64,000 nucleotides of DNA from Candidatus Latescibacterota bacterium (GCA_965215195.1 CBDCDC010000002.1:2944001-3008000), one strand, 5' to 3'; shown: positions 12,125 to 48,259, counted from the first letter of the stretch. Notes: generated from the sequence alone by a model not told the origin. Made by a program: numbers and translations.

Positions 12125-12169
12125 GATTTCCCCAAAGATGGACCTCCACAGTTTTGAAAGGTGCCGCCG

Positions 12170-20484: not shown

Positions 20485-21288
20485 ATGCAGATGAAAACGC
20501 TCGCAGTTCGCACCCTATACTTGGCCTTTGCCGCAGCTTGGCTGTACTGCCCCGGCAAGGTCGTCGCCGAGACCAAAAGCCAATACGGCGGCTTTTCGTC
20601 CGACAGTCTTCAAGTCTTCTACGACTACATTCACGGCCAAGAGATGATGAAGGTTGAGGCTGGGGCCCAATTGCGGCAAGCCGTAGAGGCCGTGCCCATT
20701 GAGCTGGGTACGGCTATTGATCTAAAGCAAGAAGCGGGGCTACGCGACTGGCTCTACGACTTCTTGGTAGCCTTTTCAGTTTCGGGCAACGACAGTCTGG
20801 CCGCCACCTTCTATCTACGTGAAAGAATTAAGCACCCGGACCCCAAGATAAGGAGTGGCATTCCAGAATTATTTGAAAAGACCAAAGCCGCATATCAGCA
20901 AACACGCGCGGATCTAGACTGCGACTACTTTTTTGCCAACGTATCTTTCTTAGACAGCGAGTTCAGGGTGTTCGCCATGCAGGAACAGTACGATAGCTAT
21001 CAGTCCTACGCCCAAACTCGCGGTATGCTTCCCAAGGGCCAAACCACTATAACGCTCCCAACACGCGAAGAAATCGAAACGCACGTAGCGGGAGGGGCGC
21101 AGATGGTCTTCGCCGACATCATGTTCATCGTCGAAGAGCCAGAGGAGTTCGCTACATTTGAGACGCCAGGACGAACCCCATCCTTTTTCCGCCTCGCGTG
21201 GGACCCAGAACGGACCGTGTGGCGAATCGTAGAAGCCTTTTTCAGTGTTGGCGTACCACAAACGCAAATGCTTCTGTTGGGCATGTAA
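20485..21288 (+). CDS. Hypothetical exported protein
   Basis: AAGGAG RBS and N-terminal hydrophobic signal; no recognised domain. Confidence 0.7.
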   Translation: MQMKTLAVRTLYLAFAAAWLYCPGKVVAETKSQYGGFSSDSLQVFYDYIHGQEMMKVEAGAQLRQAVEAVPIELGTAIDLKQEAGLRDWLYDFLVAFSVSGNDSLAATFYLRERIKHPDPKIRSGIPELFEKTKAAYQQTRADLDCDYFFANVSFLDSEFRVFAMQEQYDSYQSYAQTRGMLPKGQTTITLPTREEIETHVAGGAQMVFADIMFIVEEPEEFATFETPGRTPSFFRLAWDPERTVWRIVEAFFSVGVPQTQMLLLGM

Positions 21289-21290
21289 GT

Positions 21291-22910: not shown

Positions 22911-22945
22911 GTTTGAGCTCCCCACTAGACCGCGAGGACCGCACA

Positions 22946-24292: not shown

Positions 24293-24370
24293 CCTCTGAT
24301 TTTGGTTGCTGTGTCTTTTCGTATTTTATACAGTTACTTGCCTTGGCCCAGAAGAGTCGAGTCAGAAGAT

Positions 24371-26644
24371 ATGCCAACCACGCTACATTCCGAGGCAGGT
24401 CGCAAGAACCGCGGACGACGGATCGCGCTGAGGGCGCTTCTCCTGTTGTCAGTCCTCGGAGGAGCACCAGTTGGGGCCCAAGTGGAGGTCGTCCAACTAG
24501 GGGGCGAGGATGGGTTGTCTTGGGAGCGTGGCGGCGGGGAGATTCCAGCCTTGGTAATCCTCGACCCGGCCACGGTCGATCAGTCCAACGCGCCCGGCGG
24601 CGTCATCGACTTTGCTCCCTTTGAGCGCGCCCATTGGATCTTTCCGCAGCAGGCCGATACGACCGACAACATATTGATCGGCGTCAACTCTAAGGAGCGC
24701 GGCGGCAGCGTCATCACGCCCATCCCCTCGTTCCGCTTTCTCGAAGCCGACTTCCCCCAGATGTTCGACGACGACGGAAATACCGCCTTGGCGGTGCAAT
24801 CCTCGGGCACGGGAGGGACCGGGGCCTTTGGCCTGCTCATCGAATTCGATTTGGGGGCCATCTTTGGCGTCAATCGGTTCAAGTTTTTTCCGCGCAATGC
24901 CGATCCGGCCTTTCCGGCCCCGGATTTCCAATCCCAAGACGACTTTTTGAAGGGCTACGAAATTTTCATCAACGACGGCCAACCCGAATCGCGTCGCGAG
25001 GGCAGTCTGATCTGGGAAACGGTCGCCCTCGAGGGGCAGAACCAAGAGGCGGTGGTGGATGTGCGAATCCCCACCCGCTTCGTGCGCTTTTTGCGGCTCA
25101 AATCCCTGACGGCCGCGGACTTTGAGATCGCTGAGTTCCAAGTGTTCAGCGAGGGCTTTGTGCCGCAAGCCGTGTACATTTCCAACGTATTCGACTTTGG
25201 CGAGCGAGCACTTTTGGGCCGTTTGCGCTGGGTTGAGGAGCAGGTGGGCGATCCAACCCGCTCTAGGGTACAGGTCCGCACCCGCACCGGGGACGATCCC
25301 CAGCCGGTTGAGTTTACCCGGATCGGCAAACAATCCTCTGGCCGCGTTGAGCAGCGGGGCGATACGGTTTTTGACATCCCCATCGACGCGCCTTGGAAGA
25401 GAGCCGAAGACGTAGAAGACAGCCAACTCAACAGCCTGATCGCCAACGTCCTCGACAACGAAGAGATGGACGGGCGCGAGGCGCTTTTGACCTTTGGCCA
25501 GTTGCCGTTTGCACAGCGGTCCCAGATCACCCTCGACGAGGCGGACTACGGCAAGTTGGCGAGCGGCCAAAGATCGGTAATTCGCCAAGACCTCACCAAT
25601 TGGAGCCCTTGGTCGCCCCCCTATTCGCCCGAGGGCATTGTCGCCCCAGACCAACTTCAGGTGCAGGGAGCGGGGACGCTGATCGTCTCGCCTAGCCCGC
25701 GGCGCTACTTTCAAGTGATGGTCGAGTTCTTCAATGCCGAGGTCGATGCGGCTACAGGCATCGGCGGGGTGGCTTGGGATGTTTTTCGGCCCGTCTTCGC
25801 CGACTCTCTCATCGCCGAGATCTTGCCCCGCAGCGCCATTTTAGGCCAAGCCACCCGCTTCACGTATGGCGTTCTGGTCAAATCCACCCCCCAGAATGCG
25901 GGCTTTGACCGCTTTGAAATCAGCACGCCGCTGCGCACCGAGTCGATTGGCCAAGTGGCAATACGCCGGGCCGACGGCACGGCAGAGATGGCGGATTTTT
26001 CCGCCGCGTCCCTCGCGTCTCTGCCGGTTGAGCAGAATGGTTTTAGCGTGGTGGCCGTGCGCGACGACGGCTTTGTCGTGGCCTTTCCGCGGATTGCGGA
26101 GAATGGGGTGCTCTTGACCTTGGAGTTTGAAAATGCGGTCCTGCGCTTGGGGACTCGCTTTGCCGGCCGGGCGCTCAACGCCGATAACGACGAGGTGCTG
26201 GGCCAAGTGGTGTTGGCCGGTAATGCCGCGAATTTGAGCCGAGAGGGCATGGATGATCCCGACCGCAAGGGCGTGGGCACCCTCGATCTAAGAAACCTCT
26301 TTGTCGACGTGCCGATTACCGACGAACTGCTGGTGAATGTAGCGGCCGTCCCCAGCGTCTTTACCCCCAATGGCGACGGGATCAACGAGCGGGCGGCCAT
26401 TACCTACGATATCACCAACATAGCCCACCCGACCCGGGTGCAGCTCAGGATCTACGATTTGAGCGGCCGGCTGATCCGCGACCTGTACGAAGGCTTGGAT
26501 ATGAGCGGTCGATTCCCCCGTTTTTGGAATGGGCGCGACGATGGGGACAACCCAGTGCGGCCGGGCCACTATATCTTTTCTATTGCTTTGGATGCGGGGA
26601 CCGGAGAGGAGAAGCGGGTGGGGGTTGTCGGGGTAGCGTATTGA
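24371..26644 (+). CDS. Large secreted protein with C-terminal FlgD-Ig/CHU_C-like domain (paralog B)
   Basis: Signal peptide ending VGAQ; IEFDLG, RTRTGDD, WSPWSPPY, SPSPRRYFQ; FTPNGDGINE...IYDLSGRLIR...WNGRDD...PGHY. Confidence 0.8.
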   Translation: MPTTLHSEAGRKNRGRRIALRALLLLSVLGGAPVGAQVEVVQLGGEDGLSWERGGGEIPALVILDPATVDQSNAPGGVIDFAPFERAHWIFPQQADTTDNILIGVNSKERGGSVITPIPSFRFLEADFPQMFDDDGNTALAVQSSGTGGTGAFGLLIEFDLGAIFGVNRFKFFPRNADPAFPAPDFQSQDDFLKGYEIFINDGQPESRREGSLIWETVALEGQNQEAVVDVRIPTRFVRFLRLKSLTAADFEIAEFQVFSEGFVPQAVYISNVFDFGERALLGRLRWVEEQVGDPTRSRVQVRTRTGDDPQPVEFTRIGKQSSGRVEQRGDTVFDIPIDAPWKRAEDVEDSQLNSLIANVLDNEEMDGREALLTFGQLPFAQRSQITLDEADYGKLASGQRSVIRQDLTNWSPWSPPYSPEGIVAPDQLQVQGAGTLIVSPSPRRYFQVMVEFFNAEVDAATGIGGVAWDVFRPVFADSLIAEILPRSAILGQATRFTYGVLVKSTPQNAGFDRFEISTPLRTESIGQVAIRRADGTAEMADFSAASLASLPVEQNGFSVVAVRDDGFVVAFPRIAENGVLLTLEFENAVLRLGTRFAGRALNADNDEVLGQVVLAGNAANLSREGMDDPDRKGVGTLDLRNLFVDVPITDELLVNVAAVPSVFTPNGDGINERAAITYDITNIAHPTRVQLRIYDLSGRLIRDLYEGLDMSGRFPRFWNGRDDGDNPVRPGHYIFSIALDAGTGEEKRVGVVGVAY

Positions 26645-26705
26645 TATTGGGCGCGGGGATTGCCTCGCGCTGGATTTTACCACGCAGAATTGGGAGGGTG
26701 CGGCA

Positions 26706-29489
26706 TTGAATGTCCGCGGAGCAAATTTAACAATTGGGCTGGCACTGTTGCTCGCGTTCCAAACCGTGCTCCACGCCCAAAGCTACGGCACCCGCCTAGG
26801 GGTTCAGCGCGGCGGCGAAGTCAGTTTTGAGCCCCGGGGCCCCGGCGTGCTCTTCGGTGCTCTCGATCCCGCCGTACAGAAGTGGTACGTTCCCCAAGAA
26901 CTCTACTACGAGTTCAGGTGGCGCCAATGGGAGTACTCCAACTACGCCCGCGACCCGTATCAGCGCTATATCAACACCAACCTAGAGGGCGACTACTTCT
27001 ACGATTTTTTTGGCAACTACATCAATCGCGGCTGGCTGGTGTACGACTGGCGTCAAGACCAGCCCCAAGAGTTGGGTAGCGGCATCTTCAAGGGCCGTCA
27101 ATTCGAGCAATTCTTCAGCTCGGTGACCGTGAGTGGCGACTCCAAGGGCCAGTACTCCTACGCCATTACCGTGGGCAATGCGATCCGCACCACCCTCACG
27201 CCAATGACCTTTTCCAAGCCGAATTTCAACGGAGTCCAGATCGACTTTGCCTCGGACAAGTACGCCGCCACGGTGCTGGCCTCGCGGATCAACGATCCGG
27301 CCGTGGGCGTGACTGTCAATCCCAGACGGCAATCTAATTCGACCTCTCTACTCGGGGGCCGGGCCATCGCTCAGGTGGGCGACTTTATCACTTTGGGCGG
27401 GACCGTGGTCAACGCCCACAACGCCAATACCACTTTGGACATGTTCGAAGGCAATCTCTTGGCGGGGAACCTCACCTCGGGCCAGACGAGTACGCCGGTT
27501 ACGGCCATAGCCATCGTCCTCAGCGACGATAGCCCCGAGGACGAGGCGGGCGGCGCGGCCCTTTTCAGCCACGATATACGCATCAAGAGCCGCGACTTTG
27601 AGACCGGCCTAGAGACGGTCTCGACGTTGGACGAGGTGGTGCGCGAGGGAGCGGAGTGGCCGACCGTATTCGGCGGCTTTCCGCGCACGGGCTTTTTGGC
27701 CGCCGACGGCACCGAGCGGATCATTCTCAATTACGACTTTACGGACCCGGCGTATGTGGGGCCGGATTTAACTGCCATAGTTGAGGTGGAGTTCGACTAT
27801 GTGCTGGCCAACGACTTCAAGGTCGAGATGTGGTCCAATCTGCAGACTGGTACGCGCCCGGTGCCGCCGCCGCCGCTGACCAACCAAGTCATTGAAGAAG
27901 CCGAGCCAGTGCTCATCGGCATACGGCGGGCCGCCGGCAATATAAGGGATATATCCAATGCCCAGCGGGTTCTTTTTAACTACGGCTTGCCCTCGGCCAA
28001 CATGGTCGCCGGATTCACCATTGAAGGCAAGAACGTGTGGGGCTTTGATTTCTACGGCGAGTGGAACAACAACCTGCGCTACTTCCAGTACCCAAATGCC
28101 GCCCTCTTCAACGCCAACGAAGGGCACGAGGTCGCTGCCGAGAGCGGCCAAGCCGCCATCTTCAACCTGTCCAAAGAAGCCTATCCGTTTTTTACTTATG
28201 GCGAAGCCTATTCAGTGGATGCCGACTATTCGACCTCGGCTTTTGTCGCCCTGCCCGGCGGGGACGTTTTTTACGACGATCCCATACGCTCGGTCTACGA
28301 ATTTGTCGCCGACAACGACGACCAAGACCGCCAGCCCGACTGGGCCCGGGTAGGCTCGCAGTCAAACGACCGGGAGGTGTTTCCCGGCTGGGACGAAAAC
28401 CTCGACTTCATTTCGGATTTCAACCAGAACGACAACCGCTCGGTGCCCAATTCCATTCCCGACTACGAAGAGCCGTTTTTGCGCTACCACGTCGATCGGC
28501 CCGAACTCCTCTTTGGCATTGACCTCAACAACAACGGCTGGATCGATCGCTTTGAGGACGACGAGTTGGCCGACTATCCCTACAAGCCCGACCGGCGCGG
28601 GTACAATGCCTTTTTTGGCGTCCACCTCTTGCCCGAGGCGCGCTTGCTGGTGGGGCGGCTCAACGAGCGCATGCTCTCGGACGATAGGGACAATCAAACC
28701 GCGTATGCCATGTTCACCCTCGACAAGGACTACCCCGGTTTGGGGCGGGTGCGGGTCTTTGATATGCTCAAGCGAGTCGCGGACACCATCCCCGATGACC
28801 GGCGGGCCCCGCTGCCCTTCCTCGACGCGCCCACGCCGCCGCTGGTGTCGGATATGCTGGTCTTTCCCGATACCTGGATCAACACCGCGTGGCTGGGGGT
28901 GGACTACACAGCCATTGCCAACTTTGAGATGGTCAACAAACTCAAATACGAGCGCTACGACCCGGTCCAAGACGAGGCCCGCGACATCGATGGCCGGATA
29001 CTGGCCAGTTCGCCCTTCCTCTTGGGCCTGATCAACAAATTCGAATACAAGCTGCATCTAGGTCATTTTATTCTCCAGCCGAGGCTCAAAAGTGAGTACT
29101 TCCGCCAAGACGCCTTTGTGCAGGCCGAAGAAGACCTAAAACAATGGACTGGGATTGTCTCGCTTTTGGCCCAAGTGCCCCTACTCAACAGCAGCGTAGT
29201 TGACTTAGGCGTGGAGTTGGCCCAGTTCAACGATCTGGTGCAGCAGGAGGAGGATATGGTTGAGCAGGGCATGGCCGAAGAGACCGGGGACTTGCGCTCT
29301 GCGGTTTTTGCAGTACAGCTAACCAACAACTCAAACTATTTGGGGTACAAGCTGACGACGCAACTCGGCCTGCGCCTCGGCCGCACCTTCACCGAGGCCG
29401 TGCGGGAGGTAGAACCCCGGGTCTTCGACAAGCGCACCCAAGGCCGGACCGAGACCACCAGCTTTATCACCATTTACGCCGGATTGTAA
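26706..29489 (+). CDS. Conserved hypothetical secreted/outer-membrane protein with Ca-binding-like motifs (paralog 1)
   Basis: Signal peptide ending LHAQ; DNDDQDRQPD and DLNNNGWID motifs; alternating beta-strand pattern; collinear similarity to 29495-32356. Confidence 0.8.
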   Translation: MNVRGANLTIGLALLLAFQTVLHAQSYGTRLGVQRGGEVSFEPRGPGVLFGALDPAVQKWYVPQELYYEFRWRQWEYSNYARDPYQRYINTNLEGDYFYDFFGNYINRGWLVYDWRQDQPQELGSGIFKGRQFEQFFSSVTVSGDSKGQYSYAITVGNAIRTTLTPMTFSKPNFNGVQIDFASDKYAATVLASRINDPAVGVTVNPRRQSNSTSLLGGRAIAQVGDFITLGGTVVNAHNANTTLDMFEGNLLAGNLTSGQTSTPVTAIAIVLSDDSPEDEAGGAALFSHDIRIKSRDFETGLETVSTLDEVVREGAEWPTVFGGFPRTGFLAADGTERIILNYDFTDPAYVGPDLTAIVEVEFDYVLANDFKVEMWSNLQTGTRPVPPPPLTNQVIEEAEPVLIGIRRAAGNIRDISNAQRVLFNYGLPSANMVAGFTIEGKNVWGFDFYGEWNNNLRYFQYPNAALFNANEGHEVAAESGQAAIFNLSKEAYPFFTYGEAYSVDADYSTSAFVALPGGDVFYDDPIRSVYEFVADNDDQDRQPDWARVGSQSNDREVFPGWDENLDFISDFNQNDNRSVPNSIPDYEEPFLRYHVDRPELLFGIDLNNNGWIDRFEDDELADYPYKPDRRGYNAFFGVHLLPEARLLVGRLNERMLSDDRDNQTAYAMFTLDKDYPGLGRVRVFDMLKRVADTIPDDRRAPLPFLDAPTPPLVSDMLVFPDTWINTAWLGVDYTAIANFEMVNKLKYERYDPVQDEARDIDGRILASSPFLLGLINKFEYKLHLGHFILQPRLKSEYFRQDAFVQAEEDLKQWTGIVSLLAQVPLLNSSVVDLGVELAQFNDLVQQEEDMVEQGMAEETGDLRSAVFAVQLTNNSNYLGYKLTTQLGLRLGRTFTEAVREVEPRVFDKRTQGRTETTSFITIYAGL

Positions 29490-29494
29490 TAGGG

Positions 29495-32356
29495 ATGAGG
29501 GCGCGTTGCATCGCATTGGCGGCTCTGGCCGGGTTGAGTCTGTGGGGGGTAGCCGCAGCGCAAATCGACTATGGGGGTCGTCTGGGGGATCGGGTGGGAG
29601 ACCGCGTCATTTACCACGTGCCCGGCGTTTCTACCTATATAGAGGCGCTGGACCCGACCGTGCAGCGTTGGTACATGCCGGCCCCGCTCTTTGGCGAATT
29701 TGGCCGCAACCAGTGGGAGTACACCAACTACGCCCGCCAAGCCCACAGGCGCTATCTCAACCCCTCGGCAGAGGGGGATCTCTTCTACGATCCGTTCGGT
29801 CGCCTCATTACGCGGGGCTGGCTAGTGTACGACTGGCGCCAGACCAAACCACTGATCGCCGAGAGTTCCTCGGTCAGAAAAGGTGCCCAGTACGACAACT
29901 GGTTTAGCCGCTTGGTCCTATCCGGGGACACCAAGGGCCAGTATCGCTATTCGGTTATGGTCGGAGACGAGATCTGGACTACCCTAACGCCGATGACCTT
30001 CCGCAAGGCCGGGTTCAACGGGGTAGTAGTCGACTTTGCCGCAGACCGCTTTCGCGCCACTGGGCTTTTTTCGCGGATTTCGTTCCCGCTCCTTTCGGGG
30101 GGCACCGCGCGCTTCCAGTACGCTACCAACCTCACGGCCGGCCGGATCGAAGCCGATTTGACCGATTCTTTTACGTTGGGGATGAACTTCGTCAACAGCC
30201 ACAACAACACCGGCAGCAACGAGAGCTTCCAAGGGAATGTATTCAAGGGGGCCCTGACGGCCGGGCAACTGGCCCAGCGGGTTGACCGGCTCTTGGTGCG
30301 GCTCTCGGACGACTCGCCAGAAGATGGCGAGGGGGGTGCTGTCTTGGTTAGCGAGGAGGTCGAGATCCGCACTACCCTGAGCCGTCAGGAAATGGTTCGG
30401 GACCAGCTAATCCACGTGGAGCGAGATACCGTCATCTTCAGCAGCAGTATCGGTTTTAGACCGACCATTACAGGGGGGCGGCGAGACCGGGGGTTTCTAA
30501 CGGCCGATGGTGCGGACCAGATCGTTTTGCAATATCCCTTGGCCCCTAGGGAGATGGCGGAAGAACAGGGAACCTTGCGTGCGCTCTTCCAGCAACACCT
30601 AGATCTCACTCTATCTGAGGCCGAGGCCGCGATTAGCGCCATTCGGGACGTGCGCTTCCGCCTCGTGCTAGCCAACGACTACCGAGTCGAGGTCAGTTCC
30701 AATAGGCAGACGGACGAATTTGACGTGCCGCAATTTTTACCTGTGGCGCGGGCCGATGGCAATATCAAAAACCAGTTGAACCAGCGGGAGGTCGTCTTCG
30801 ACTATGGGCTGCCTACGGCTAACCAGCTCGTCGGTCTGACGGCCGAGGTGCGAGATTTTCACGGCTTGGATTTTTACGGAGAAATAAACCTCAATACCCA
30901 GTACCGAAAATACCCCAGCATAGGGCGCGATTCGCACCGTGCGATCAACGGCATGGCCGGGGACCGCCACGAGGTGGGCTGGTTGGTCAATTTGGCCTTC
31001 CGCGAGGGGCCTTGGCGCTTTATGGGCGAGGGGTTTGGCATGGAAGACGGGTACCGCACCAGCGTCCTGACGGTAAATCGCGACGGGGTGTCGGACTACG
31101 CTCCCGAGGCCGTCAACCTGCACTACGAGTTTGTAGATGACAACGACGACAACGACCGGCAACCCGACTGGCTGCGGGTGGGCGAGGGCAGCTTTGTCCC
31201 CACCGAGCGCCGCAGCGAAATCGAGGTCCGCGGCGTGGCCGATCCGGCGGTTTTCCCCGGTTATGACGAAAATCGCGACTTTATCTCGGACTTCAACCAG
31301 AATAGCACCATCGATCGGGTGAATTTTTTCCCGGACTACGACGAGCCTTTTTTGCGCTATGCCGCGGATCGCCCGCAGTTTCTCTTCGGCATTGATCTCA
31401 ACAACAATGGGTGGGTGGAGCGCTTTGAAAACGACCAAGAGCCGGACTATCCCTACAAGCGAGACCACTGGGGCTACAACCTCTTCGGCGGGCTCGCGGT
31501 GGCACCGGGTATCGAGCTGCGGGTGGGGCAGTTGCGGCAAATCCGCTTGGCGAGCGACCGCCGCAACCTGACCAGCTATGGGATGTTCGCCTTGGAGCAG
31601 AGCGGGTCGCGGTGGGGCCGCCTGCGGGTTTTCGACATGGTTAAGAAGGCCGAAGACGCGATCGCCGACCACTTGGTGCAATGGATCATCCCGAGGAGCG
31701 CATTCGGCGCGGCGGCCGAGTCGGCCGGCAGCAATGTGCCGGTATTAGACCCCTTGGCCGCGGCAGACACTTGGATCAACACTTTTTACGCCGACTATGA
31801 GTACGCCAGCCCGCGTTTGTGGCGGACCCTGCACCGCTTCAAGTGGGAGACTTGGCGGCAGCGCGACAGCGATGCACTAGGCCCCGAGGGGCGCAACGGG
31901 CGACGGACCTCGGGCTTTGTCGGGCTGATCAACAAGATAGAATACGTCTTTTACTGGCGGTCGCTGCGTTTCAGGCCCAAACTCAAGAGCGAATTCCTGC
32001 GCGAGGTGCCCTTTAGCCGAGCATTTGACACGCGGCGCTCTTGGGACGGCCTCTTCTTCTTTGTCGGCAGCGTTCCAGTGCTCGAGGCCACCGAGTTCGA
32101 GTTCGGCTTGGAGCAGCGCTCTTTCTCCGACCTCAAAGGGGGAGAAGACGAGTTGGCGGCAGGGCTTTTCACCGGGGATTTTCGCGGCTCGGTTTTGGCG
32201 TTGCAACTCACCAATATCAGCCAATACCTAGGCTATCAGCTAACCACTCAGGTGGGCATCCGCCTCGATCGCCGCTCGTTGGAGGTTGTTGGCCGGAGCC
32301 GCGAGATCGAGACTTCGGGCTTGAGTTTTCTGTCGATTATCGCCGGCTTAAAGTGA
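29495..32356 (+). CDS. Conserved hypothetical secreted/outer-membrane protein (paralog 2)
   Basis: Signal peptide ending AAAQ; shares RGWLVYDWRQ, TTLTPMTF, LSDDSPED, FISDFNQN and FGIDLNNNGW with paralog 1. Confidence 0.8.
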   Translation: MRARCIALAALAGLSLWGVAAAQIDYGGRLGDRVGDRVIYHVPGVSTYIEALDPTVQRWYMPAPLFGEFGRNQWEYTNYARQAHRRYLNPSAEGDLFYDPFGRLITRGWLVYDWRQTKPLIAESSSVRKGAQYDNWFSRLVLSGDTKGQYRYSVMVGDEIWTTLTPMTFRKAGFNGVVVDFAADRFRATGLFSRISFPLLSGGTARFQYATNLTAGRIEADLTDSFTLGMNFVNSHNNTGSNESFQGNVFKGALTAGQLAQRVDRLLVRLSDDSPEDGEGGAVLVSEEVEIRTTLSRQEMVRDQLIHVERDTVIFSSSIGFRPTITGGRRDRGFLTADGADQIVLQYPLAPREMAEEQGTLRALFQQHLDLTLSEAEAAISAIRDVRFRLVLANDYRVEVSSNRQTDEFDVPQFLPVARADGNIKNQLNQREVVFDYGLPTANQLVGLTAEVRDFHGLDFYGEINLNTQYRKYPSIGRDSHRAINGMAGDRHEVGWLVNLAFREGPWRFMGEGFGMEDGYRTSVLTVNRDGVSDYAPEAVNLHYEFVDDNDDNDRQPDWLRVGEGSFVPTERRSEIEVRGVADPAVFPGYDENRDFISDFNQNSTIDRVNFFPDYDEPFLRYAADRPQFLFGIDLNNNGWVERFENDQEPDYPYKRDHWGYNLFGGLAVAPGIELRVGQLRQIRLASDRRNLTSYGMFALEQSGSRWGRLRVFDMVKKAEDAIADHLVQWIIPRSAFGAAAESAGSNVPVLDPLAAADTWINTFYADYEYASPRLWRTLHRFKWETWRQRDSDALGPEGRNGRRTSGFVGLINKIEYVFYWRSLRFRPKLKSEFLREVPFSRAFDTRRSWDGLFFFVGSVPVLEATEFEFGLEQRSFSDLKGGEDELAAGLFTGDFRGSVLALQLTNISQYLGYQLTTQVGIRLDRRSLEVVGRSREIETSGLSFLSIIAGLK

Positions 32357-32460
32357 TTTTTGCTTGACCTCATACTCTATTTTTCTTATTTACAAACACC
32401 TGCTAAGTCGCTTTACTGTACGCCTTCAAAACCTCACACCTCTAAGAAGGAGGTTCCGCT

Positions 32461-33381
32461 GTGAAGAACGTATTATCCGCCTTATTTGCCACTGCGCTTT
32501 TGCTCGGCCTGAGCACCAAGGTCCAAGCCCACGATCCACCCGACTTCATCGGCGCGGTGTGGCAATGGCCCGAGACGCACCTTCCGGTCTTAGATGCCGA
32601 TCTGAGCGAATGGGATATCATTCCCGAGGAATTTTGGATCACTGAGCAGAGCGTCGTACAGAGCACGGCCCGGCCGTGGATCTACACCGGCGATTTGGAT
32701 GTCTCCTCAATTTCCTTCCGCTGGATTCCCACTTGGAACGAGGAAACCAACCGCATCTACTGGGCCTACGAGCGCTTCGACGACAAGTACCAGTTGGGCA
32801 ACGAGTCGGTCGAAACAACAGTAGATGCCGATCACTCGGGCGGCTCCTTCTGGGATCTGGAAGGCCAGAGCGACGAGGAGATCGCACGCCAGCGCGGCCG
32901 TCATGCGCAAATCAGCCACTATTGGTTCGACAATGGCCAAGCCCGGGAAGGCCAGTGGAACTGGTTTTGGATGACCCAAGCCGACTGGTACGACACGCCA
33001 CCGTACTCCGACCATTCGTATTGGTTTAGCGGCACGGCGCCCAATTCCTTTGAGGAGATGCGCCAACGGGCCGAGTGGTGGAGCGTCTATTGGGACGACT
33101 TCAACTGGGAAGATCCCCAAGGGAGCGTCCTGCACGACTTCCAGCAGGACGAGATCATCGGCCTTACCGGGCACGTCTTCGATACCGATGCCGAGCTATC
33201 CGACGATTGTAACTGCCATTCGCGCTGGGCCATCAGTCCCAACGTTGAGTCCTTTGGCGACGCCGATTTCTTGGCCGACTGGGTGCTTTTGGGCGTTGAC
33301 GAGTCCGCCTTTGAAGGTATCGCGCCCACAGCCGTCGAAGACAACACTTGGGGCCAGGTCAAGGCTTCGTTCGGCAAATAA
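32461..33381 (+). CDS. Secreted acidic, Trp-rich protein (possible CBM9/DOMON-like fold) with C-terminal TWG motif
   Basis: AAGGAGG RBS and GTG start; signal peptide ending VQA; PVLDADLSEW motif; tail TAVEDNTWGQVKASFGK. Confidence 0.8.
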   Translation: MKNVLSALFATALLLGLSTKVQAHDPPDFIGAVWQWPETHLPVLDADLSEWDIIPEEFWITEQSVVQSTARPWIYTGDLDVSSISFRWIPTWNEETNRIYWAYERFDDKYQLGNESVETTVDADHSGGSFWDLEGQSDEEIARQRGRHAQISHYWFDNGQAREGQWNWFWMTQADWYDTPPYSDHSYWFSGTAPNSFEEMRQRAEWWSVYWDDFNWEDPQGSVLHDFQQDEIIGLTGHVFDTDAELSDDCNCHSRWAISPNVESFGDADFLADWVLLGVDESAFEGIAPTAVEDNTWGQVKASFGK

Positions 33382-33410
33382 GCGGTTATTGCGCATCACA
33401 AGTGCTTTAT

Positions 33411-33446
33411 AAAAAAGGGGGAGGATTCGAATCCTCCCCTTTTTTT
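33411..33446 (+). terminator. Intrinsic terminator
   Basis: AAAAAAGGGGGAGGATTCGAATCCTCCCCTTTTTTT: hairpin plus T tract, about 30 bp after the stop at 33381. Confidence 0.85.
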
Positions 33447-33486
33447 ATTTTCTAGCTGGACCATCTACCGGTGTAGGAGGTAGATA

Positions 33487-35409
33487 ATGAGAGGGAATTT
33501 GCGGCGATTTTTGTCGGCTGCTCTATTGGGGGGCTTTTGCTCTGGGCTAGCTGAGGTCGAGGCGCTCACCATATATCGCATTGGCGGCGAGGAATTGCCG
33601 CCGCCGGAAGTGGAAGTGGACTTTGCATTTGTCCAGCTATCTTGGGCTGATGTCGAAGAAAAGCGGCTCGGTAGGATAGACCTCTTGGAGGTCGCGACCC
33701 ATTCTATTGAGCCTCAGCGCCTAGATCCCGCCGTCAATCTGACGCCCCTGATCCGGGAGCGGGGCGGCGGCATCCGCTCGAACAATTCCTACGGTTGGCA
33801 ATCGGAAGCCCTGTTGGACAACTTGATGGACGGCGATCTGACCACCGCCTATTTGGGCAGTGGCCGCAGCCAGTCGGCCGACTGCTCGCCGTGCAAGAAG
33901 GGCATCTGGTTTGAGTTGAACGGACTGTTTCCCATCCGGCGCATCAAAATTTCCACCACCGAGCGCTTTGCCCACCAGCGCTTCATCGAGGAGTTCGAGA
34001 TAGGCACCAACGATGGCGATGCGCGCAAAAAGGGAACCCGAGAAGGGCAATACCATTGGCGCGGGGCCTTTCTCGATTACGACATCGCGTTCAAGGTCGC
34101 AAACAATTTGGAACCCTTTCTCGATTTAGAACTGCCAGACCGCCCCATTGCCGAAATTCTTTTTAAGGCTCCAGTCGGCAATTGGGAAATCGCCGAATTC
34201 GAGATCTTCGGGGATGGCTTTGCCTCGCAGGCCAGCTATGTATCCAATGTCATTGATTTGGGCATGGCTTCTAGTCTAGGCGAGTTGATTTGGGCGGGTA
34301 GCCGGGATCTGGGAGCAATGGTCAATCTGAGTATGCGCAGCGGCGACGACGCGGATCCTAATTTCTACTGGCGCTTCACGTTCAGAGGCGATGAGCGCTC
34401 CCGCTTTGCAGCCAGCGGCGAACCACTCACGCTAGACCGCTATAAAAAATTGGAGGAAGGCGAGAAAGCCGGGATCAGCCCAGACAACGAAAGTTGGGAG
34501 TTCTGGACGCCGCCGCTTGAGTTCGATAGGGGGCATTCCGAATTAGTGGGTTCGCGGCCTCGGCGTTACTTGCAGTTCAAGGCAGATTTCTTCTCGGAGC
34601 GAGCCCTTGCGGCCGGACGCATGGAGTACTTGCAGTTTAATGTTTCCCAACCGCCGGTGGCCAGCCAAGTGCTGGCCGAGATCGCACCGCACCAAGTTGA
34701 GGTGGGCGAGGTCGTCCAATTCACCTACAAAATCCTGCCCAACTTGGAGCGGGATGATCTCGGCTTCGACAGCATTGAGATCGACACCCCCATAGAGGTC
34801 ACGAGCATTGACGCGGTGTACATCGGCGGCGAAGAACAGAATTTTACCATCGCGGAAAAGGACGCCAAGAGCTTTGTGGTACAGGTGCCGCGGATTGATC
34901 TCAACCGCACGGGCGAGTTGCTCGAAGTCGAATTTCAGGCCGAGGTCTTTCAGGTGGGCACGGTGTTTTCAGGCCGGGTCTTCGACAGCCAGCGTCCCCA
35001 TGAGGTGCGTCAGCGCATCACTGCGGGGAACGCCGACGATCTGGCCGAGAGCAATACCCTGAGTGTGGGGTTGGGTACGGTGGCCAATCCGGCGGTCAAG
35101 GCATTGTGGCTTTCGCCGCGGCTTTTCACCCCCAACGGCGATGGTGTCAACGATGTGCTACAAATTGAATACGATCTGGTAAACCTCAGCGGTGCGGTGC
35201 CCGTGGCGATTGACCTCTACGATCTGGCGGGAGTGAAGCGATGCGAGGTGGCCCATAGTACCGCGGCCAGTGGCCGGTTCTCAGCTACTTGGGAGGGCGT
35301 GGACGATGCGGGCAACCTGCTGGCCCCCGGACTCTATCTCTTGCGTCTCGAAGTTGATTCGGACAAGGCGAGGGACGTCGAGGTCGCTGTCGTCCGGCTG
35401 ATTTATTAA
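33487..35409 (+). CDS. Secreted protein with C-terminal FlgD-Ig/CHU_C-like domain (paralog C)
   Basis: AGGAGG RBS; LMDGDLTTAY, EIAEFEIFGDGF, SMRSGDD, WEFWTPP, SRPRRYLQ; FTPNGDGVND...LYDLAG...WEGVDDAGNLLAPGLY. Confidence 0.82.
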   Translation: MRGNLRRFLSAALLGGFCSGLAEVEALTIYRIGGEELPPPEVEVDFAFVQLSWADVEEKRLGRIDLLEVATHSIEPQRLDPAVNLTPLIRERGGGIRSNNSYGWQSEALLDNLMDGDLTTAYLGSGRSQSADCSPCKKGIWFELNGLFPIRRIKISTTERFAHQRFIEEFEIGTNDGDARKKGTREGQYHWRGAFLDYDIAFKVANNLEPFLDLELPDRPIAEILFKAPVGNWEIAEFEIFGDGFASQASYVSNVIDLGMASSLGELIWAGSRDLGAMVNLSMRSGDDADPNFYWRFTFRGDERSRFAASGEPLTLDRYKKLEEGEKAGISPDNESWEFWTPPLEFDRGHSELVGSRPRRYLQFKADFFSERALAAGRMEYLQFNVSQPPVASQVLAEIAPHQVEVGEVVQFTYKILPNLERDDLGFDSIEIDTPIEVTSIDAVYIGGEEQNFTIAEKDAKSFVVQVPRIDLNRTGELLEVEFQAEVFQVGTVFSGRVFDSQRPHEVRQRITAGNADDLAESNTLSVGLGTVANPAVKALWLSPRLFTPNGDGVNDVLQIEYDLVNLSGAVPVAIDLYDLAGVKRCEVAHSTAASGRFSATWEGVDDAGNLLAPGLYLLRLEVDSDKARDVEVAVVRLIY

Positions 35410-35562
35410 CGGATGTTACGCGCGATAGGGATCGGCCGCTGTTGCTTCGGCGACCCAACAGCGGTTGATCTCCTTATCCTATCGGTTCCATCTGCGCCAT
35501 CTGCGGATCGAGTTGTTCCCCCGATGTCAGTTATTAACCCTATAAACTATGGTTTTAGATTT

Positions 35563-37233
35563 ATGAAAAGTGAAATAGTACGCTCAGGCGTTCTCATCCT
35601 AGGGCTGTCGCTTCCCAGTGCGGCCCAAGACGATCTGGTGCTAGCTCATATAGGCGACCAACCCATCGCCGTCCGCGAATTTAGAGCCTATGCTGCGAAC
35701 ATTCCCCAAGCCTACCAGATGGGCAAGACCGGCACCGAGGCCGACCGGATATTGCTCAATGGACTGATCGACAAAAAACTATTGCTCGCCGAAGCGGAAC
35801 GAGCCGGCATTGGCGACGAACCGGAGTTTAAGCGCAAGCTCGAGCAGTTCGCCGAGGATCAGATCGTCCGGCTCTACAAAAGCAGCGAAATTGATCAGCA
35901 GGTCTCCATTGCCGAAGAGGAGTTGATGCAGCACTACCGGGATTCGCACCGGGATCGCGCGCTGCGCTATGCGGGCATTTTGGTAGCGACCCGAGACGAG
36001 GCCCTCGAACTGCTTGACGAACTAGAGGGTGGCGCTGATTTCCGCCAACTGGCCAAAGAGCACTCGCTCTACGAGGCGACGCGGGACCAAGGCGGGGATG
36101 TGGGGAAGTACTATACTATCGACGATACGGCTCCACCGCTCCGAAGTATCTTTTCCATGCAGGTCGGCGAGGTTTCCGAGCCGCTGCCGTGGGGCGGCGA
36201 CCCGCAGCGCTGGGTGATCGTCAAGGTTTTAGACGACGCGCCGGTGGCCTTGCGGGAGGTAGCCCAGTTCGTCCGGGAGGAAGTTTTCGCCCAAAAGCGG
36301 CTGCGGCGCACCCAAGCCCTGCGCGATTCGCTCAACGGCCAGTACGCGCCGCAAATTCACTACGACAAGATAGACCACGTGCTGATGCGTCTGGCACTAT
36401 CGCCCGCAGAGCGGGGGGCGTCGCCCGAGGGGGGCGAAGAGGTTTTGTGCCGCTATAAAGGGGGTACGCTTACGGTTGACGATCTCGTCTTGGGCGTACC
36501 GGAGAAGGAAGAGGGTTATTCGCGCAATTACGAGCGAAACTGGATCGTCGATTATCTACAGGATGTGGCCATCCCCAATCGGATATTTTTGGCAGAGACC
36601 CGCGGCAAGGGACTGGACAAACATCAGATGATCCTCGCGGCGGTGGCCAACAAGCGCGGCGATATGCTGGTGAGCGCGTTGAGAAAGCGCGAGGTTGAGG
36701 AGCGGCTGCCGCCGGTCACCGATGCAGAGGCGCGGGCCTTTTACGATCAAAATCCCGAGAAGTTTCAGGGCTTTGAGAACATTGTCGCGACCGAGATTCT
36801 GGTGGCCTTTAAGGAGCAGGCCCACAGTCTGCAAGCGGAGTTGGCCGGAGGTGCCGACGCGATGCAGTTGGCTAGGGACTATACGATTCGCAAGGAGCGG
36901 GCGCACCACGAGGGGCGGTTGGTCTTGAGTCCGGTGGGGCTGTACCAAGATCTCTACAAAGTAGCCAAGGATCTGCAGGTGGGAGATGTGGGGGGACCGG
37001 TAAAGGTGAGAGGGGGATATTCGGTGTTCAAGGTGGAGGAGAAGCAACCACCCCCGAAGAAGCCCTACCACATTTTTTCGCAGCGGCGGGCGCGGGCTTA
37101 TGTGCAAATTGCCCGGTCGCAAAAGGCGTACGTGGAGTACGTGCGCGGGTTGCACGAGAAGTACTCGGTCGAGATTTTCGAGGAGAATTTGTTGAAAATT
37201 CGAGAAGAGGAGGAAGCCGTGAAGGGGGGATGA
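35563..37233 (+). CDS. Periplasmic parvulin/PpiC-type peptidyl-prolyl isomerase chaperone (SurA/PrsA-like, two modules)
   Basis: LIDKKLLLAEA, GADFRQLAKEHS...GGDVG, QVGEVSEP; second module LQVGDVGGPVKVRGGYSVFKV. Confidence 0.88.
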   Translation: MKSEIVRSGVLILGLSLPSAAQDDLVLAHIGDQPIAVREFRAYAANIPQAYQMGKTGTEADRILLNGLIDKKLLLAEAERAGIGDEPEFKRKLEQFAEDQIVRLYKSSEIDQQVSIAEEELMQHYRDSHRDRALRYAGILVATRDEALELLDELEGGADFRQLAKEHSLYEATRDQGGDVGKYYTIDDTAPPLRSIFSMQVGEVSEPLPWGGDPQRWVIVKVLDDAPVALREVAQFVREEVFAQKRLRRTQALRDSLNGQYAPQIHYDKIDHVLMRLALSPAERGASPEGGEEVLCRYKGGTLTVDDLVLGVPEKEEGYSRNYERNWIVDYLQDVAIPNRIFLAETRGKGLDKHQMILAAVANKRGDMLVSALRKREVEERLPPVTDAEARAFYDQNPEKFQGFENIVATEILVAFKEQAHSLQAELAGGADAMQLARDYTIRKERAHHEGRLVLSPVGLYQDLYKVAKDLQVGDVGGPVKVRGGYSVFKVEEKQPPPKKPYHIFSQRRARAYVQIARSQKAYVEYVRGLHEKYSVEIFEENLLKIREEEEAVKGG

Positions 37234-38261
37234 GCATGACTAGTTGGAGATTGGGTTTGGGGGTATCGGTCTTGGGGGTCGCCTTTTGGGTCGGCTGTCA
37301 GGGGCCTGAAGAGCCGCTAGCTGTTGGTGGGACTGGGGCGATAGCTATTGGGTCTCAGGAGGAGTTAGAGGCTTGGGCGGGGGCGCAAAAGAGAGCCTTT
37401 GTGCTGCGGGGAGCGCTTTTATTGGAGGATGCGTACTTGAGCAGTATGGAGGCACTGCACAATCTGGTCGGCGTAGAGGGAGATTTAATCATTCGGCACA
37501 ATGGGACGCTGACGGACCTGAAGGGGCTGCACAATCTCAGCTACGTAGAGGGGAATTTCCACCTTATTGCCAATGGATTGATTGCACTAGAGGGGCTAGA
37601 ACAGCTAGAGCGCGTGGGGGGAAATTTCGAGATTAGCTGCAATTTTTTGCTGCGGGATTTGGATGGGCTTAAGGGTCTCAGGCGCGTCGGCGGTCATCTC
37701 TTTGTCGATGCCACGACCGAGCTGATGCACATTGATGGTCTGCGCGAGCTGACCCACGTGGGGGGCAACATCAAGATCAGGGACAACAAGGCCCTGCGGG
37801 ATCTAAAGGGGTTGGGCAGCCTCTCCGCGGTAGAGGACGAGTTGCTGCTCATATTCAATGGTGCGCTAAACGACCTGCGGGGTTTGGACGGGATTGCGAC
37901 TATTAAGGGCGGGTTGACCATTGATGGACATCCCGCTCTCAAGAGCTTGGAGGGGTTGAATGCGCTGGAGGAGGTCGGAGGTGCTTTGAGCATAAACAGC
38001 AACCAAGCCTTGCAAGCCCTAAATGGGCTGAACAACCTCAGGCAGGTGGGTAAAAGCCTCTACATTGGCGGCAACCCCCTCCTGAGCAACTTGGACGGGC
38101 TGGCCAAGTTGGACCAGATCGGCACTAGCGAGCGGGACTTGATGATTGTGGAATTGAACCCCTCGCTGCCCATGAGCGCTGGGTACGAACTAGCCGAGCG
38201 ACTCGGATTGGCCGCGCATCAGTTCATCGTCTTCGACAATTTGCCGGCTAGTGCGCCGTAA
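37230..38261 (+). CDS. Receptor-L-domain/LRR-like repeat lipoprotein
   Basis: Lipobox FWVGC; 25-aa repeats of LxGLxxLxxVGGxLxIxxNxxL. ATGA overlap with the PPIase gene. Confidence 0.85.
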   Translation: MSMTSWRLGLGVSVLGVAFWVGCQGPEEPLAVGGTGAIAIGSQEELEAWAGAQKRAFVLRGALLLEDAYLSSMEALHNLVGVEGDLIIRHNGTLTDLKGLHNLSYVEGNFHLIANGLIALEGLEQLERVGGNFEISCNFLLRDLDGLKGLRRVGGHLFVDATTELMHIDGLRELTHVGGNIKIRDNKALRDLKGLGSLSAVEDELLLIFNGALNDLRGLDGIATIKGGLTIDGHPALKSLEGLNALEEVGGALSINSNQALQALNGLNNLRQVGKSLYIGGNPLLSNLDGLAKLDQIGTSERDLMIVELNPSLPMSAGYELAERLGLAAHQFIVFDNLPASAP

Positions 38262-41703: not shown

Positions 41704-43653
41704 CTACCACCGCGTCACCACCGCATCCCACCCTGCAATCAGATCTACTGCCATCCACGCGCCCGCGCTGCTGACTTGGCCCAACACCATGCCTAAAAAA
41801 AAGGGCCGCAGCCGGCGAAAGAGTGGGACCCCTCCGTACTTCAATACGATCCATTTCGCCAGCCAGCCCAATGCCATACTCGACCAAGCGAAGAACATCA
41901 CATAGGTCCCCCCCACCGGCAGGCCGATTGGGTGGATGGGCCACCACAAGAAGCGGTGGCGCAGGTACAACAACAAAAACATCAGCCCGGCCCCCAAGCC
42001 GGTGAACGCGCCCCGCGGCCCCCAGAAATTCCACTCGGCCACCGGATTGAGCTGATTCGCCGCTATGTCGTTAAACGTCCAGCGGCCCATAATGCTGTAA
42101 AACCAGTAGTGGAGATTGACCCCGCCGTAGGTGTAGGCGATGGAAAGTACCGTCCAAGCCGAGGCGACCAAACTCACGGCAATGGCTATGAGCAAAGCCC
42201 AAAAGAGCGGTGGTCGGCGCGTCCCGACGACCTCGGCCAGCCGGGTGCTGTTGGAAGCTGCCGCCATAACGGTCGTGCGAATGTCCCCGGCCCAGCCGTT
42301 GGCAAACCCGAGCACCATCAAGCCTCGCGGCCCAATGGGTGCCGTGCCCAGCGCGTTGAGCGCAAAGGCTGTCGGCGTCATCTGCGCCCGGCCATACCCC
42401 ATGCCCCCTTCGGCGACGATCCGCGTCAAACCGACGAATACCACAAAGGCGATAACGAGCAACAGCAGTGCCGCCCCCACGGGCAATCCCGCGCTTTTCA
42501 ACCAGAGGACCGCGTAGAGGAAGGCCCCTAGCAGGAGCCACACCGCCTTGCGGTAGGAGAGCATCTGCCCGCTGTCCGCTCCCGCTTCCCGCTTTTTCCA
42601 CGCCCCGGCGACGACTTCTTTGAGATGCCGCCGGGCAGTCCACAAGCTGGCCGCCACGAGGGCGATCAACGCTCCCATGGCTTGCTGGGCAGTAGCGATG
42701 GACCCTTCGGTGTGCATCAGCCGGATCTCTGGAATGCTGAATCCGATGGTGTTGAAAAGGCCCAACTGGAAGAAATTGAGCAAGTAGAAAAACCACAGAC
42801 TAAAGGAGACCTCCAGACTCAGGAAGTACGTCAGGCCCAAGACGATAAACCACAAGTTGAGCAAGACGCCCCGCATGTCGTGGAAGACGGTCAATTGGGT
42901 TGACAACTGGATGGGAGGAACAAAGGGATAGTACTTGTGCAGGGCATTGATCCCCAATAGGACGAAGGGAATGGCAAACCCCAACCACATCAGGGGTTCC
43001 TTCAGAAAGGGATTGACCGCCGAGGGTCTGTCGTCCTCGTGGATCATGTACAGCGGCAACTGCACGAGCGGAAAGATCAAGCGCTCGTTGCGGGCCCATT
43101 GTTCGTGGAGCAGGGCCGACAGGGCGATCATCATCAAGTAGAGTGCCGCCAAAAAAGAAGCCCACGCCAACAAGGGCCCCAACCACGCGCCCCAAGGAAC
43201 GGCCACGCCTTGGGGCAACCCTTCGTAGAAGTACTTGACCGCCAGCGGGTCTTGTGGCGCCAGCCACGGCTGGATGTAGGGGTGGAGTAGCTCGGCCCAG
43301 TTGTTTTCGGGCGTGGCATAGTAATAGACCCCGGCCAAGAAGGGGACCAATTGAGCCGTGACCCCGGTGGAGGGAATGGCCGAAGCCGCGACCATCATGG
43401 CGTAGATCACCACTAGTTCCCGGGCCGATAGGCTCCATTTGCGCCCGATCCACTTGAGCGGAATGTTGACCAACAGCAGGAGAAAGAGGAGGAAAATCGC
43501 GCTCAGGGCGATGAAGTCCCCGGTCCAATCGAGAGTACCCATCACCAGCAGGCCATAGGGAAAAACCGCGTTGATCACCGCGGCCAGCAAAGTGCCGACG
43601 AGCAGGGCGCGATACGGCATCCATCCTTTGTCCTTGGCGACGAATTGGCTCAT
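41704..43653 (-). CDS. DUF6785/DUF6784-type polytopic membrane protein (putative transporter)
   Basis: YYATPENNW, QWARNERLIFPLVQLP, TRIVAEGG, WWPIHPIG, LRPFFLG. Family assigned from motif recall. Confidence 0.75.
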   Translation of the reverse strand: MSQFVAKDKGWMPYRALLVGTLLAAVINAVFPYGLLVMGTLDWTGDFIALSAIFLLFLLLLVNIPLKWIGRKWSLSARELVVIYAMMVAASAIPSTGVTAQLVPFLAGVYYYATPENNWAELLHPYIQPWLAPQDPLAVKYFYEGLPQGVAVPWGAWLGPLLAWASFLAALYLMMIALSALLHEQWARNERLIFPLVQLPLYMIHEDDRPSAVNPFLKEPLMWLGFAIPFVLLGINALHKYYPFVPPIQLSTQLTVFHDMRGVLLNLWFIVLGLTYFLSLEVSFSLWFFYLLNFFQLGLFNTIGFSIPEIRLMHTEGSIATAQQAMGALIALVAASLWTARRHLKEVVAGAWKKREAGADSGQMLSYRKAVWLLLGAFLYAVLWLKSAGLPVGAALLLLVIAFVVFVGLTRIVAEGGMGYGRAQMTPTAFALNALGTAPIGPRGLMVLGFANGWAGDIRTTVMAAASNSTRLAEVVGTRRPPLFWALLIAIAVSLVASAWTVLSIAYTYGGVNLHYWFYSIMGRWTFNDIAANQLNPVAEWNFWGPRGAFTGLGAGLMFLLLYLRHRFLWWPIHPIGLPVGGTYVMFFAWSSMALGWLAKWIVLKYGGVPLFRRLRPFFLGMVLGQVSSAGAWMAVDLIAGWDAVVTRW

Positions 43654-48231: not shown

Positions 48232-48259
48232 TTCGTGGTTAGTGATTCGTGGTTAGGCG

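Follow-up and report, generated by a model that had tools for sequence, protein, structure and literature searches.

A recurrent six-gene cassette around a predicted giant outer-membrane barrel family in a Candidatus Latescibacterota bacterium

Systems that pair surface proteins with an outer-membrane barrel were used here as the reference for a six-gene locus at positions 24,371 to 37,233 of a 64,000-nucleotide stretch (hereafter, the window) of a Candidatus Latescibacterota bacterium (GCA_965215195.1, CBDCDC010000002.1:2944001-3008000). The locus encodes two paralogous surface proteins (B and C, family BC), two paralogous proteins predicted to be giant outer-membrane beta-barrels (T1 and T2, family T), a small secreted protein ending in a TWG-type tag (sm) and a SurA-like peptidyl-prolyl isomerase (PPIase); a contiguous set of such genes will be referred to as a cassette. 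In Bacteroidota, type B cargo of a type IX secretion system (T9SS) binds adjacent PorP-like barrels, according to two reports (PMC9143113, PMC12618676). Pairs such as SprB-SprF and PG1035-PorP resemble the cassette in that large surface proteins carry a CHU_C-like C-terminal domain, the cargo gene adjoins the barrel gene, several pairs occur per genome and a T9SS is present. However, T is not homologous to PorP/SprF (PF11751 and TIGR03519 are unmatched), has about 900 amino acids (aa) against the roughly 300 of PorP/SprF barrels, and contains an invariant acidic insert. The sets differ as well, since there are one to five cargo paralogs per barrel (most often three), a tagged protein with a predicted CBM9-like fold and a SurA-like chaperone are added, and the genome holds about 40 of them.

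The SusC/SusD polysaccharide utilization loci (PULs) of Bacteroidota share with the cassette a much-amplified set of an outer-membrane barrel and surface proteins of carbohydrate-binding type, a position beside inner-membrane transporters and sugar-catabolic genes, and frequent FG-GAP/ASPIC neighbours. Unlike them, the cassette has no TonB-dependent plug or receptor domain, SusD or glycoside hydrolases, its surface proteins bear T9SS-type tails or the TWG tag instead of lipoprotein signals, and it brings its own chaperone. SlpA of Deinococcus/Thermus, a 30-strand barrel with a SlpA_C domain, is comparable to T in being a very large barrel and in lying among the best fold matches, with weak SlpA_C echoes in the T family; T differs by having neither an SLH domain nor a coiled-coil stalk, by SlpA_C scores below the cut-off, and by another genomic context and copy number. 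The cassette PPIase, finally, is similar to SurA/PrsA-type parvulins in its two rotamase domains, SurA_N-like N-terminus and signal peptide, but has 39 paralogs in one genome, 30 of which lie beside a T barrel. Whether taken as surface cargo with a cognate outer-membrane barrel or as a PUL-like set, the cassette is built on a barrel outside known families and is apparently undescribed. No published description of the barrel family, the cassette, DUF6785 (see below) or the tag was found in a search that did not extend to subscription journals, and a term search of the main text of the sponge Latescibacterota genome paper (PMC12993501) found that neither secretion system nor outer membrane, T9SS or FlgD occurs in it. 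We propose, tentatively and at slightly less than even odds, that this is one instance of a modular capture-and-entry cassette of the outer membrane, PUL-like but made of different parts.

The preliminary description of this DNA, which was made from the sequence by itself, listed six co-oriented genes with signal peptides on the + strand, and every listed item was borne out at its position (Table 1), the signal peptides of the cassette proteins being read by eye from the translations. The two T genes are separated by 5 nt and are 40% identical end to end, as described. The suggestion to look for the same gene order elsewhere gave a clear answer. The host assembly (6.13 Mb, two contigs) contains 65 stretches matched in a six-frame search with T2 and 53 T open reading frames (ORFs) detected with phmmer. 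The latter correspond to 38 neighbourhoods or 40 contiguous cassettes, covering 412,213 bp, i.e., 6.7% of the genome. The commonest order is sm-BC-BC-BC-T-(T)-PPIase; three BC genes are present in 22 of the 38 neighbourhoods, while 26 have one T gene, nine have two and three have three. The 14.9% of the genome that lies within 10 kb of a T gene includes 99/124 BC, 21/26 sm and 30/39 PPIase genes, and BC is directly upstream of T in 30 of the 40 cassettes. About ten cassettes carry an additional lipoprotein of 240-270 aa with a lipobox-like N-terminus (…GC G/S…), e.g., at C2:1181515-1182273, C2:3690048-3690770 and C2:4297377-4298150; it is missing from the cassette in the window, and one tested member had no Pfam match.

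Beyond this genome, a scan of species-representative genomes yielded 628 confirmed stretches, and the 80 loci kept from these, chosen by likeness to T2, all come from metagenome-assembled genomes (MAGs), nearly all titled Latescibacterota or Gemmatimonadota and a few labelled otherwise. T was found in 79 of the loci, T with BC in 75, these together with sm or its tag in 55 and all four families in 45; the five loci lacking a T-BC pair are mostly on short contigs. Given the 40 recurrences within the genome and the 75/80 loci in other genomes, the six-gene arrangement is far beyond chance. In ten orthologous loci (L009-L018, with 90-93% identity to T2) the order BC-T-T-sm-BC is kept in 10/10, with the contig of L013 starting inside T1, so that its upstream BC lies off the contig, and eight of the ten also continue as in the window with PPIase, the Recep_L_domain gene, the glycosyltransferase and the FG-GAP gene. 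T1 orthologs in other MAGs are 94-96% identical. The fetched loci include orthologs of 7/51 T genes; identity to these orthologs is 92-96%, against 52-79% to the nearest paralog within the genome, and thus these seven paralogs are older than the species splits; as the comparison covers seven genes only, in a locus set selected by T2 likeness, nothing follows for the other 44.

The distribution of T within the phylum is uneven. T is present in 94/151 sampled genomes, including 64/64 of its own family, and in 0/30 and 0/18 genomes from two sister families belonging to that class, counts that come from related and hence not independent genomes. In five complete T-less genomes, the BC profile matches via the tail only (all listed matches but two are at positions 522-634). 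So, the body of BC and T travel together, and the tail is general.

T1 and T2 have no Pfam family at E up to 0.01 and no NCBIfam family at E up to 0.1, and the PorP/SprF models PF11751 and TIGR03519 do not match them. Neither the plug (PF07715) nor the TonB_dep_Rec barrel was found in them, although the same model recovers 21 receptors elsewhere in the genome, and SlpA_C (PF21620, 35-bit cut-off) is likewise unmatched in both. These scans, together with a model of a very large beta-barrel, agree with the preliminary description, which considered the twins unlike PorP and TonB receptors. The 53 paralogs of the genome measure 868-1076 aa, with a single exception of 555 aa. More broadly, the family comprises 966 cluster representatives at 50% identity, and 724 relatives in a 90% cluster collection are named 'hypothetical protein' wherever a name exists. 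A Pfam scan of distant members left 19/22 without any family, the other three showing sub-threshold SlpA_C matches (16.8-22.8 bits), as does one divergent paralog of the genome (22.8 bits); none of the scanned members exceeds the cut-off of any curated family.

In the AlphaFold2 (AF2) model of T2 (pLDDT 68.3), a barrel of about 30 strands extends across residues 139-953, following a conserved aromatic N-terminal region at about residues 26-120. An acidic insert at about 545-657 holds an EF-hand-like loop, DLNNNGWVERFE, and the columns D634, N636, N637, N638, R643, F644 and E645 (T2 numbering) are invariant in the family; the loop D-x-N-N-N-G-W-x-x-R-F-E has the textbook EF-hand pattern. The preliminary description had assigned calcium dependence to the tailed adhesins, but the calcium-type motif is in the T barrels and not in B or C. 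As modelled, T1 and T2 would be members of a giant-barrel family outside known families, with an invariant acidic EF-hand-like insert.

The fold comparison that had been suggested for the twins upheld the likeness to large barrels and went no further. Naming T by its fold was abandoned, given that only large-barrel matches were obtained (MtrB, SlpA, LptD, SprA; Foldseek TMq <=0.23) and that VIA Z values of 12-13 are tied for FimD, SlpA and MtrB; the matches are generic and no family can be named from them. The T profile searched against PDB sequences gave a single chance match (E 2), placement in an atlas reached unnamed clusters only (the nearest named one, DUF6029 at 0.89, is below the trustworthy level), and a 1598-aa 'fused' T in locus L050 proved to be an upstream open frame overlapping T1 instead of a fusion. 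A complex of T1 (residues 25-927) and the 97-aa C-terminal domain of B, modelled from paired alignments, had a score of 0.00 in each of two runs (the mark being 0.32) and, with controls not folded, weighs neither way. Three cassettes (C1:173462-186291, C2:2516533-2529020, C2:3767890-3780892) each contain three consecutive, divergent T genes that share just 27-39% identity with other T genes, one of them giving a sub-threshold SlpA_C match; these may be an older subfamily.

B and C are 28-30% identical over both halves and end in a domain of about 95 aa (about 97 in B) with a TPNGDG motif (...VFTPNGDGINE... in B, ...LFTPNGDGVND... in C). Pfam CHU_C (PF13585, cut-off 27) matches B with 33.1 bits and C with 27.1 bits, FlgD_ig is just below its cut-off in B (24.8 bits) and also in C, and the NCBIfam type B model TIGR04131 (cut-off 35) stays below it in both (24.1 and 14.9 bits). 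Among 21 members of the family, FlgD_ig and CHU_C are each found in 21/21 and F5_F8_type_C in 6/21 (best E 0.0069), and the BC profile matches FlgD, the C-terminal domain of PorU and, at its N-terminus, CBM32 2j7m (E 0.002) in the PDB. No F5/8 type C domain (PF00754) was detected in B or C themselves at E up to 0.01. At the sequence level, the tail is a lineage-specific relative, and the bodies appear discoidin/CBM32-like. A third BC in the window, at 12161-14758 (+), has 865 aa, an F5_F8_type_C domain above the cut-off (33.2 versus 28.2 bits) and a FlgD_ig/CHU_C tail. No T gene adjoins it, and the gene that follows, on the other strand (14755-16281), encodes a TPR protein. Genome-wide, 53 further proteins bear the BC-type tail, of which 10/53 are within 10 kb of T versus 99/124 for BC, and thus the tail by itself needs no T.

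No T9SS core gene had been seen in the window, and the suggested check for one elsewhere in the genome was positive: SprA (605.8 bits summed, including stretches of 499.4 and 97.3; cut-off 200) and PorU (628.6 bits, cut-off 420) are above the curated cut-offs, and a PorV-like gene adjoins PorU (147.6 bits, below the cut-off of 250). The C-terminal domain of PorU itself resembles the tails of B and C, and about 50 ORFs match this region of the PorU model. With SprA, PorU, a PorV-like gene and these ORFs present, the tails are best read as the T9SS signal of the lineage, and the cassette is unlikely to be itself the secretion machine, as these T9SS genes lie elsewhere. The PorP/SprF models have no match genome-wide, the control genomes being silent too.

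The C-terminus of sm reads ...TAVEDNTWGQVKASFGK. An AAGGAGG site lies 7 nt ahead of its GTG start, and its stop codon is followed by a hairpin with a 9-bp GC-rich stem (33418-33439) and a T run on the + strand, which agrees with the ribosome-binding site and strong terminator ascribed to this gene before; since A and T runs flank the hairpin, it could act both ways. The sm model (pLDDT 76.6, with the last 15 residues disordered) finds a CBM9 structure in Foldseek (1i82_A, E 6.4e-8, TMt 0.65), followed by 7nwn (E 1.6e-7). By sequence, CBM9_1 (PF06452) matches just 2/18 members (best E 0.0018), and there is no match among PDB sequences. The model therefore suggests that sm carries a CBM9-like fold.

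Among the sm-like ORFs of other loci, 55/58 keep the tag. A non-overlapping set of 4,985 genes contains 57 occurrences of the TWG-type motif, 53 of these within the last 25 residues. The carriers include 31 of the sm family, 27 of them within 10 kb of T, and 22/53 outside this family, just 2/22 of which are near T by the same measure. Docking of the TWG tail specifically on T was dropped for this reason (20 of the 22 non-sm carriers are away from T). Because non-sm carriers are rarely near T, the tag is better regarded as a general C-terminal signal, and, judged by where its carriers are encoded, T is unlikely to be its reader. One of the other carriers is in the window: a fasciclin-domain protein of 195 aa at 826-1413 (-), which ends in TAVE..TWG.VK as sm does and adjoins a TonB-dependent receptor with CarboxypepD_reg and Plug domains at 1599-3800 (-). 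The tag thus serves unrelated folds.

In three studies, metatranscriptome contigs lie over T1, T2, sm and C, and one contig spans the T2-sm junction. In the RNA runs, 5-7% of the sampled words are present, their source being relatives about 90-95% identical and not the strain of the window. The k-mer depth of the contigs over sm is 287-304 in run X8 and up to 485 in run X7, compared with about 7-35 for T and C (two runs, two studies), a measure that ranks genes poorly, in libraries that may hold DNA. Together with its own ribosome-binding site and terminator, this hints at sm being the abundant subunit, in line with the preliminary description.

The PPIase ORF (35413-37233) has two rotamase stretches and a SurA_N-like N-terminus, with Pfam matches to Rotamase_2 (2e-21) and Rotamase (2.5e-17), each in two stretches, and to SurA_N_3 below its cut-off (0.0018). 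The real start is probably the Met at 35563, given that the product then has a signal peptide and, at 556 aa, is as long as four orthologs. In run X7, a metatranscriptome contig from a relative omits 128 nt between the end of C and this start (35402-35531), in agreement with it. With 30 of the 39 PPIase paralogs within 10 kb of T, there seems to be one chaperone per cassette rather than a single housekeeping SurA.

To describe the surroundings of the cassettes, the 628 genes within 10 kb of them were clustered. Beyond the cassette genes, one flank family is strongly recurrent, a polytopic membrane protein of about 650-716 aa with the Pfam domains DUF6785 and DUF6784. The genome has 42 DUF6785-like genes, 22/42 of them within 10 kb of a cassette (distributed over 20 cassettes; naive binomial P 1e-9) and seven within 500 bp, six of these downstream on the same strand. 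Only one is near any of the 21 TonB-dependent receptors. The atlas similarity of the family to peptide/OPT-type transporters (0.77-0.79) is a weak lead. The DUF6785/6784 protein is probably an inner-membrane partner and not a core cassette gene. Other recurrent flank genes encode parts of ABC sugar transporters, GFO/IDH/MocA oxidoreductases, enolase-superfamily enzymes and PhyH dioxygenases. Across the class, a first-look search gave 20-60 DUF6785/DUF6784 candidates per genome, T-less families included. Around ten DUF6785 genes of one T-less genome there are two sulfatases, two heparinase II/III-like genes, two GFO/IDH/MocA genes and one TonB-dependent receptor, with no single recurrent outer-membrane partner; these neighbours fit a role in polymer use.

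In the proposed capture-and-entry cassette, all six proteins would be exported by Sec, and the SurA-like protein would escort the barrel of about 900 aa to the beta-barrel assembly machinery (BAM). The T9SS would move B and C across the outer membrane via their tails, after which they would remain on the cell surface, probably attached to their cognate barrel, and sm would reach the surface via its tag and act as an abundant binding subunit. A glycan or glycoconjugate, different for each paralogous cassette, would then be captured by the lectin-like proteins, pass into the periplasm through the calcium-stabilised barrel and be brought into the cell by either an OPT-like DUF6785/6784 permease encoded nearby or an ABC sugar transporter. 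Taken to its full extent, and in that form rather doubtful, this would be a third independent way of harvesting polymers over the Gram-negative outer membrane, in which T9SS-displayed lectin-like proteins and TWG-tagged CBM9-like proteins feed a giant, calcium-gated, TonB-free barrel with an OPT-like DUF6785/6784 permease beneath, and in which some 40 cassettes, each for one substrate, serve as the main nutrient uptake of an uncultured lineage that includes sponge-associated populations.

Several observations weigh against capture and entry. DUF6785 shows the same expansion in sister families without T (48/48 genomes), is absent from the genomes of a family with weak T-like matches (0/13) and lies within 10 kb of only 20/40 cassettes. 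A dependence of DUF6785 on T was therefore dropped, and the two are not obligate partners. Enzyme genes are absent from all 40 cassettes, and T has no plug, TonB box or known transporter domain in Pfam and NCBIfam scans. The CBM-like assignments of BC and sm are weak at the sequence level, and two of the best-conserved stretches of T2, the N-terminal region and the acidic insert, have a pLDDT <50 in the model. The barrel is a predicted one, and an open barrel of 30 strands would require gating. On the secretion side, the GldM models of the T9SS motor are unmatched in the genome, with no control genome above the cut-off either (the TIGR03517 controls are silent and two of PF12081 are below it). 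The caveats given above for the contig depth over sm apply here too.

If nothing crosses the barrel, the locus could still serve display, with T as a lineage-specific counterpart of PorP/SprF that acts as shuttle or anchor for the adhesins B and C. We find this possible, although on the unlikely side. The tails of 21/21 family members match CHU_C, a type B model, BC is directly upstream of T in 30/40 cassettes, the BC body and T co-occur phyletically, and Bacteroidota provide the precedent of type B cargo on adjacent PorP-like barrels (PMC9143113, PMC12618676). The silence of the PorP/SprF models in the genome would leave this role free, with the caveat that the control genomes are equally silent. 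However, the size of T is about threefold that of PorP/SprF and there is no PF11751 or TIGR03519 match, some 30 strands and an invariant calcium-type insert exceed the needs of an anchor, the linkage to inner-membrane permeases and sugar catabolism would go unexplained, and the 53 further carriers of this tail are unlinked to T (10/53 versus 99/124 BC within 10 kb). What the preliminary description had called a secretion, anchoring or ligand-capture apparatus thus holds as a lineage-specific outer-membrane module, for which anchoring or capture fits the CBM-like folds, while an export function of its own is unlikely.

Such an export function, with each T or T1-T2 pair as an autonomous pore moving the neighbouring tailed proteins without the T9SS, seems to us very improbable. 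The genes are adjacent, the modelled barrel is big enough for a pore and the GldM-type motor models are unmatched (with no control genome above the cut-off), but the genome encodes SprA and PorU, the latter next to a PorV-like gene, PorU itself has a C-terminal domain resembling the tails, the tail of B and C occurs on 53 non-cassette proteins, and the cassette has neither an energy source nor a plug. Somewhat less remote, and still improbable, is a structural role, in which T would be an abundant SlpA-like barrel forming a surface layer or porin lattice with BC and sm, its paralogs providing antigenic or phage-escape variation. This would accord with Deinococcus SlpA among the best fold matches, with the sub-threshold SlpA_C matches in 3/22 distant members and one genome paralog (16.8-22.8 and 22.8 bits, cut-off 35), and with the depth of sm contigs in RNA libraries. 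On the other hand, T lacks an SLH domain or coiled coil, T1 and T2 are unmatched by SlpA_C, and the fold scores are tied with those of the unrelated FimD and MtrB. Orthologs at 92-96% identity against 52-79% for the nearest paralog (7/51 T genes) are unlike fast variation, and forty dedicated chaperones are hard to square with a lattice.

Should capture and entry be correct, 6.7% of this genome, and a comparable share of related MAGs, would encode an outer-membrane machine that is unnamed in databases. The PUL concept would reach beyond TonB-dependent SusC/D, T9SS cargo would gain a role in nutrient capture outside Bacteroidota, DUF6785/DUF6784 would obtain a first functional context, and cassette repertoires could be used to read the substrate preferences of uncultured Latescibacterota-type bacteria. 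Even with display only, T would add a new class to the barrels that partner T9SS cargo.

Domain scans (Pfam/NCBIfam) of the flanks identified Recep_L_domain proteins, a glycosyltransferase, FG-GAP/ASPIC proteins and ABC-2 permeases, which bears out the L-domain, glycosyltransferase, CRTAC1/TPR and ABC-2 permease genes recognised in the preliminary description. The upstream order of FG-GAP/ASPIC and Recep_L_domain genes is kept in the orthologous loci L010-L012, L015 and L017. A role of the locus in glycosylation, which had been proposed as well, is not sustained, as the glycosyltransferase has one copy in the genome, at this locus (and its orthologs), and is absent from the other 39 cassettes.

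Table 1. Positions of the cassette genes, associated signals and flanking genes, counted from the first nucleotide of the window.
Feature	Position	Strand	Remarks
B, BC-family surface protein	24371..26644	+	ATG 24371; longest ORF 24302-26644 opens at TTG 24302
T1, member of the predicted giant outer-membrane beta-barrel family, 927 aa	26706..29489	+	40% identity to T2
T2, T1 paralog, 953 aa	29495..32356	+	AF2 model; conserved-column analysis
AAGGAGG ribosome-binding site and GTG start of sm	32445..32461	+	preceded by a 104-nt AT-rich spacer
sm, secreted TWG-tailed protein, 306 aa	32461..33381	+	CBM9-like fold model; tag TAVE-x3-TWGQVKASFGK
Intrinsic-terminator-like hairpin GGGGAGGATTCGAATCCTCCCC and T run	33418..33449	+	directly 3' of sm
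C, second BC-family surface protein, 640 aa	33487..35409	+	FlgD_ig/CHU_C-type tail
PPIase, SurA-like double-parvulin chaperone	35563..37233	+	frame open from 35413; probable start 35563
FG-GAP/ASPIC protein, locus-specific upstream accessory	21198-22910	+	Pfam
Recep_L_domain protein, locus-specific upstream accessory	22913-24292	+	Pfam
Recep_L_domain protein, locus-specific downstream accessory	37230-38261	+	Pfam
LA_3751/3752-like glycosyltransferase, locus-specific downstream accessory	38251-39957	+	183 bits, below cut-off 200
FG-GAP/ASPIC protein, locus-specific downstream accessory	39993-41636	+	Pfam
DUF6785/DUF6784 polytopic inner-membrane protein, candidate OPT-like permease	41704..43653	-	Pfam 451.7 + 92.3 bits; hydropathy profile

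The 64-kb window holds five FG-GAP/ASPIC (CRTAC1-like) proteins in all (21198-22910, 39993-41636, within 46279-51138, and 53954-56176), one of which also contains fused pentapeptide repeats; about 54 members occur genome-wide, and for 25 of these a T gene is no more than 10 kb away. Four PhyH-type dioxygenases, a type that also recurs in cassette flanks, are clustered at 7994-9767 and 58935-63204 of the window, and a WelO5-like halogenase-family protein is found at 8883-9767. Next to the DUF6785/DUF6784 gene, 43658-46189 (-) encodes a membrane protein of 843 aa that contains a spermine/spermidine-synthase domain and of which a paralog has a weak MFS match; this family has six members in total, four of them within 10 kb of a cassette.

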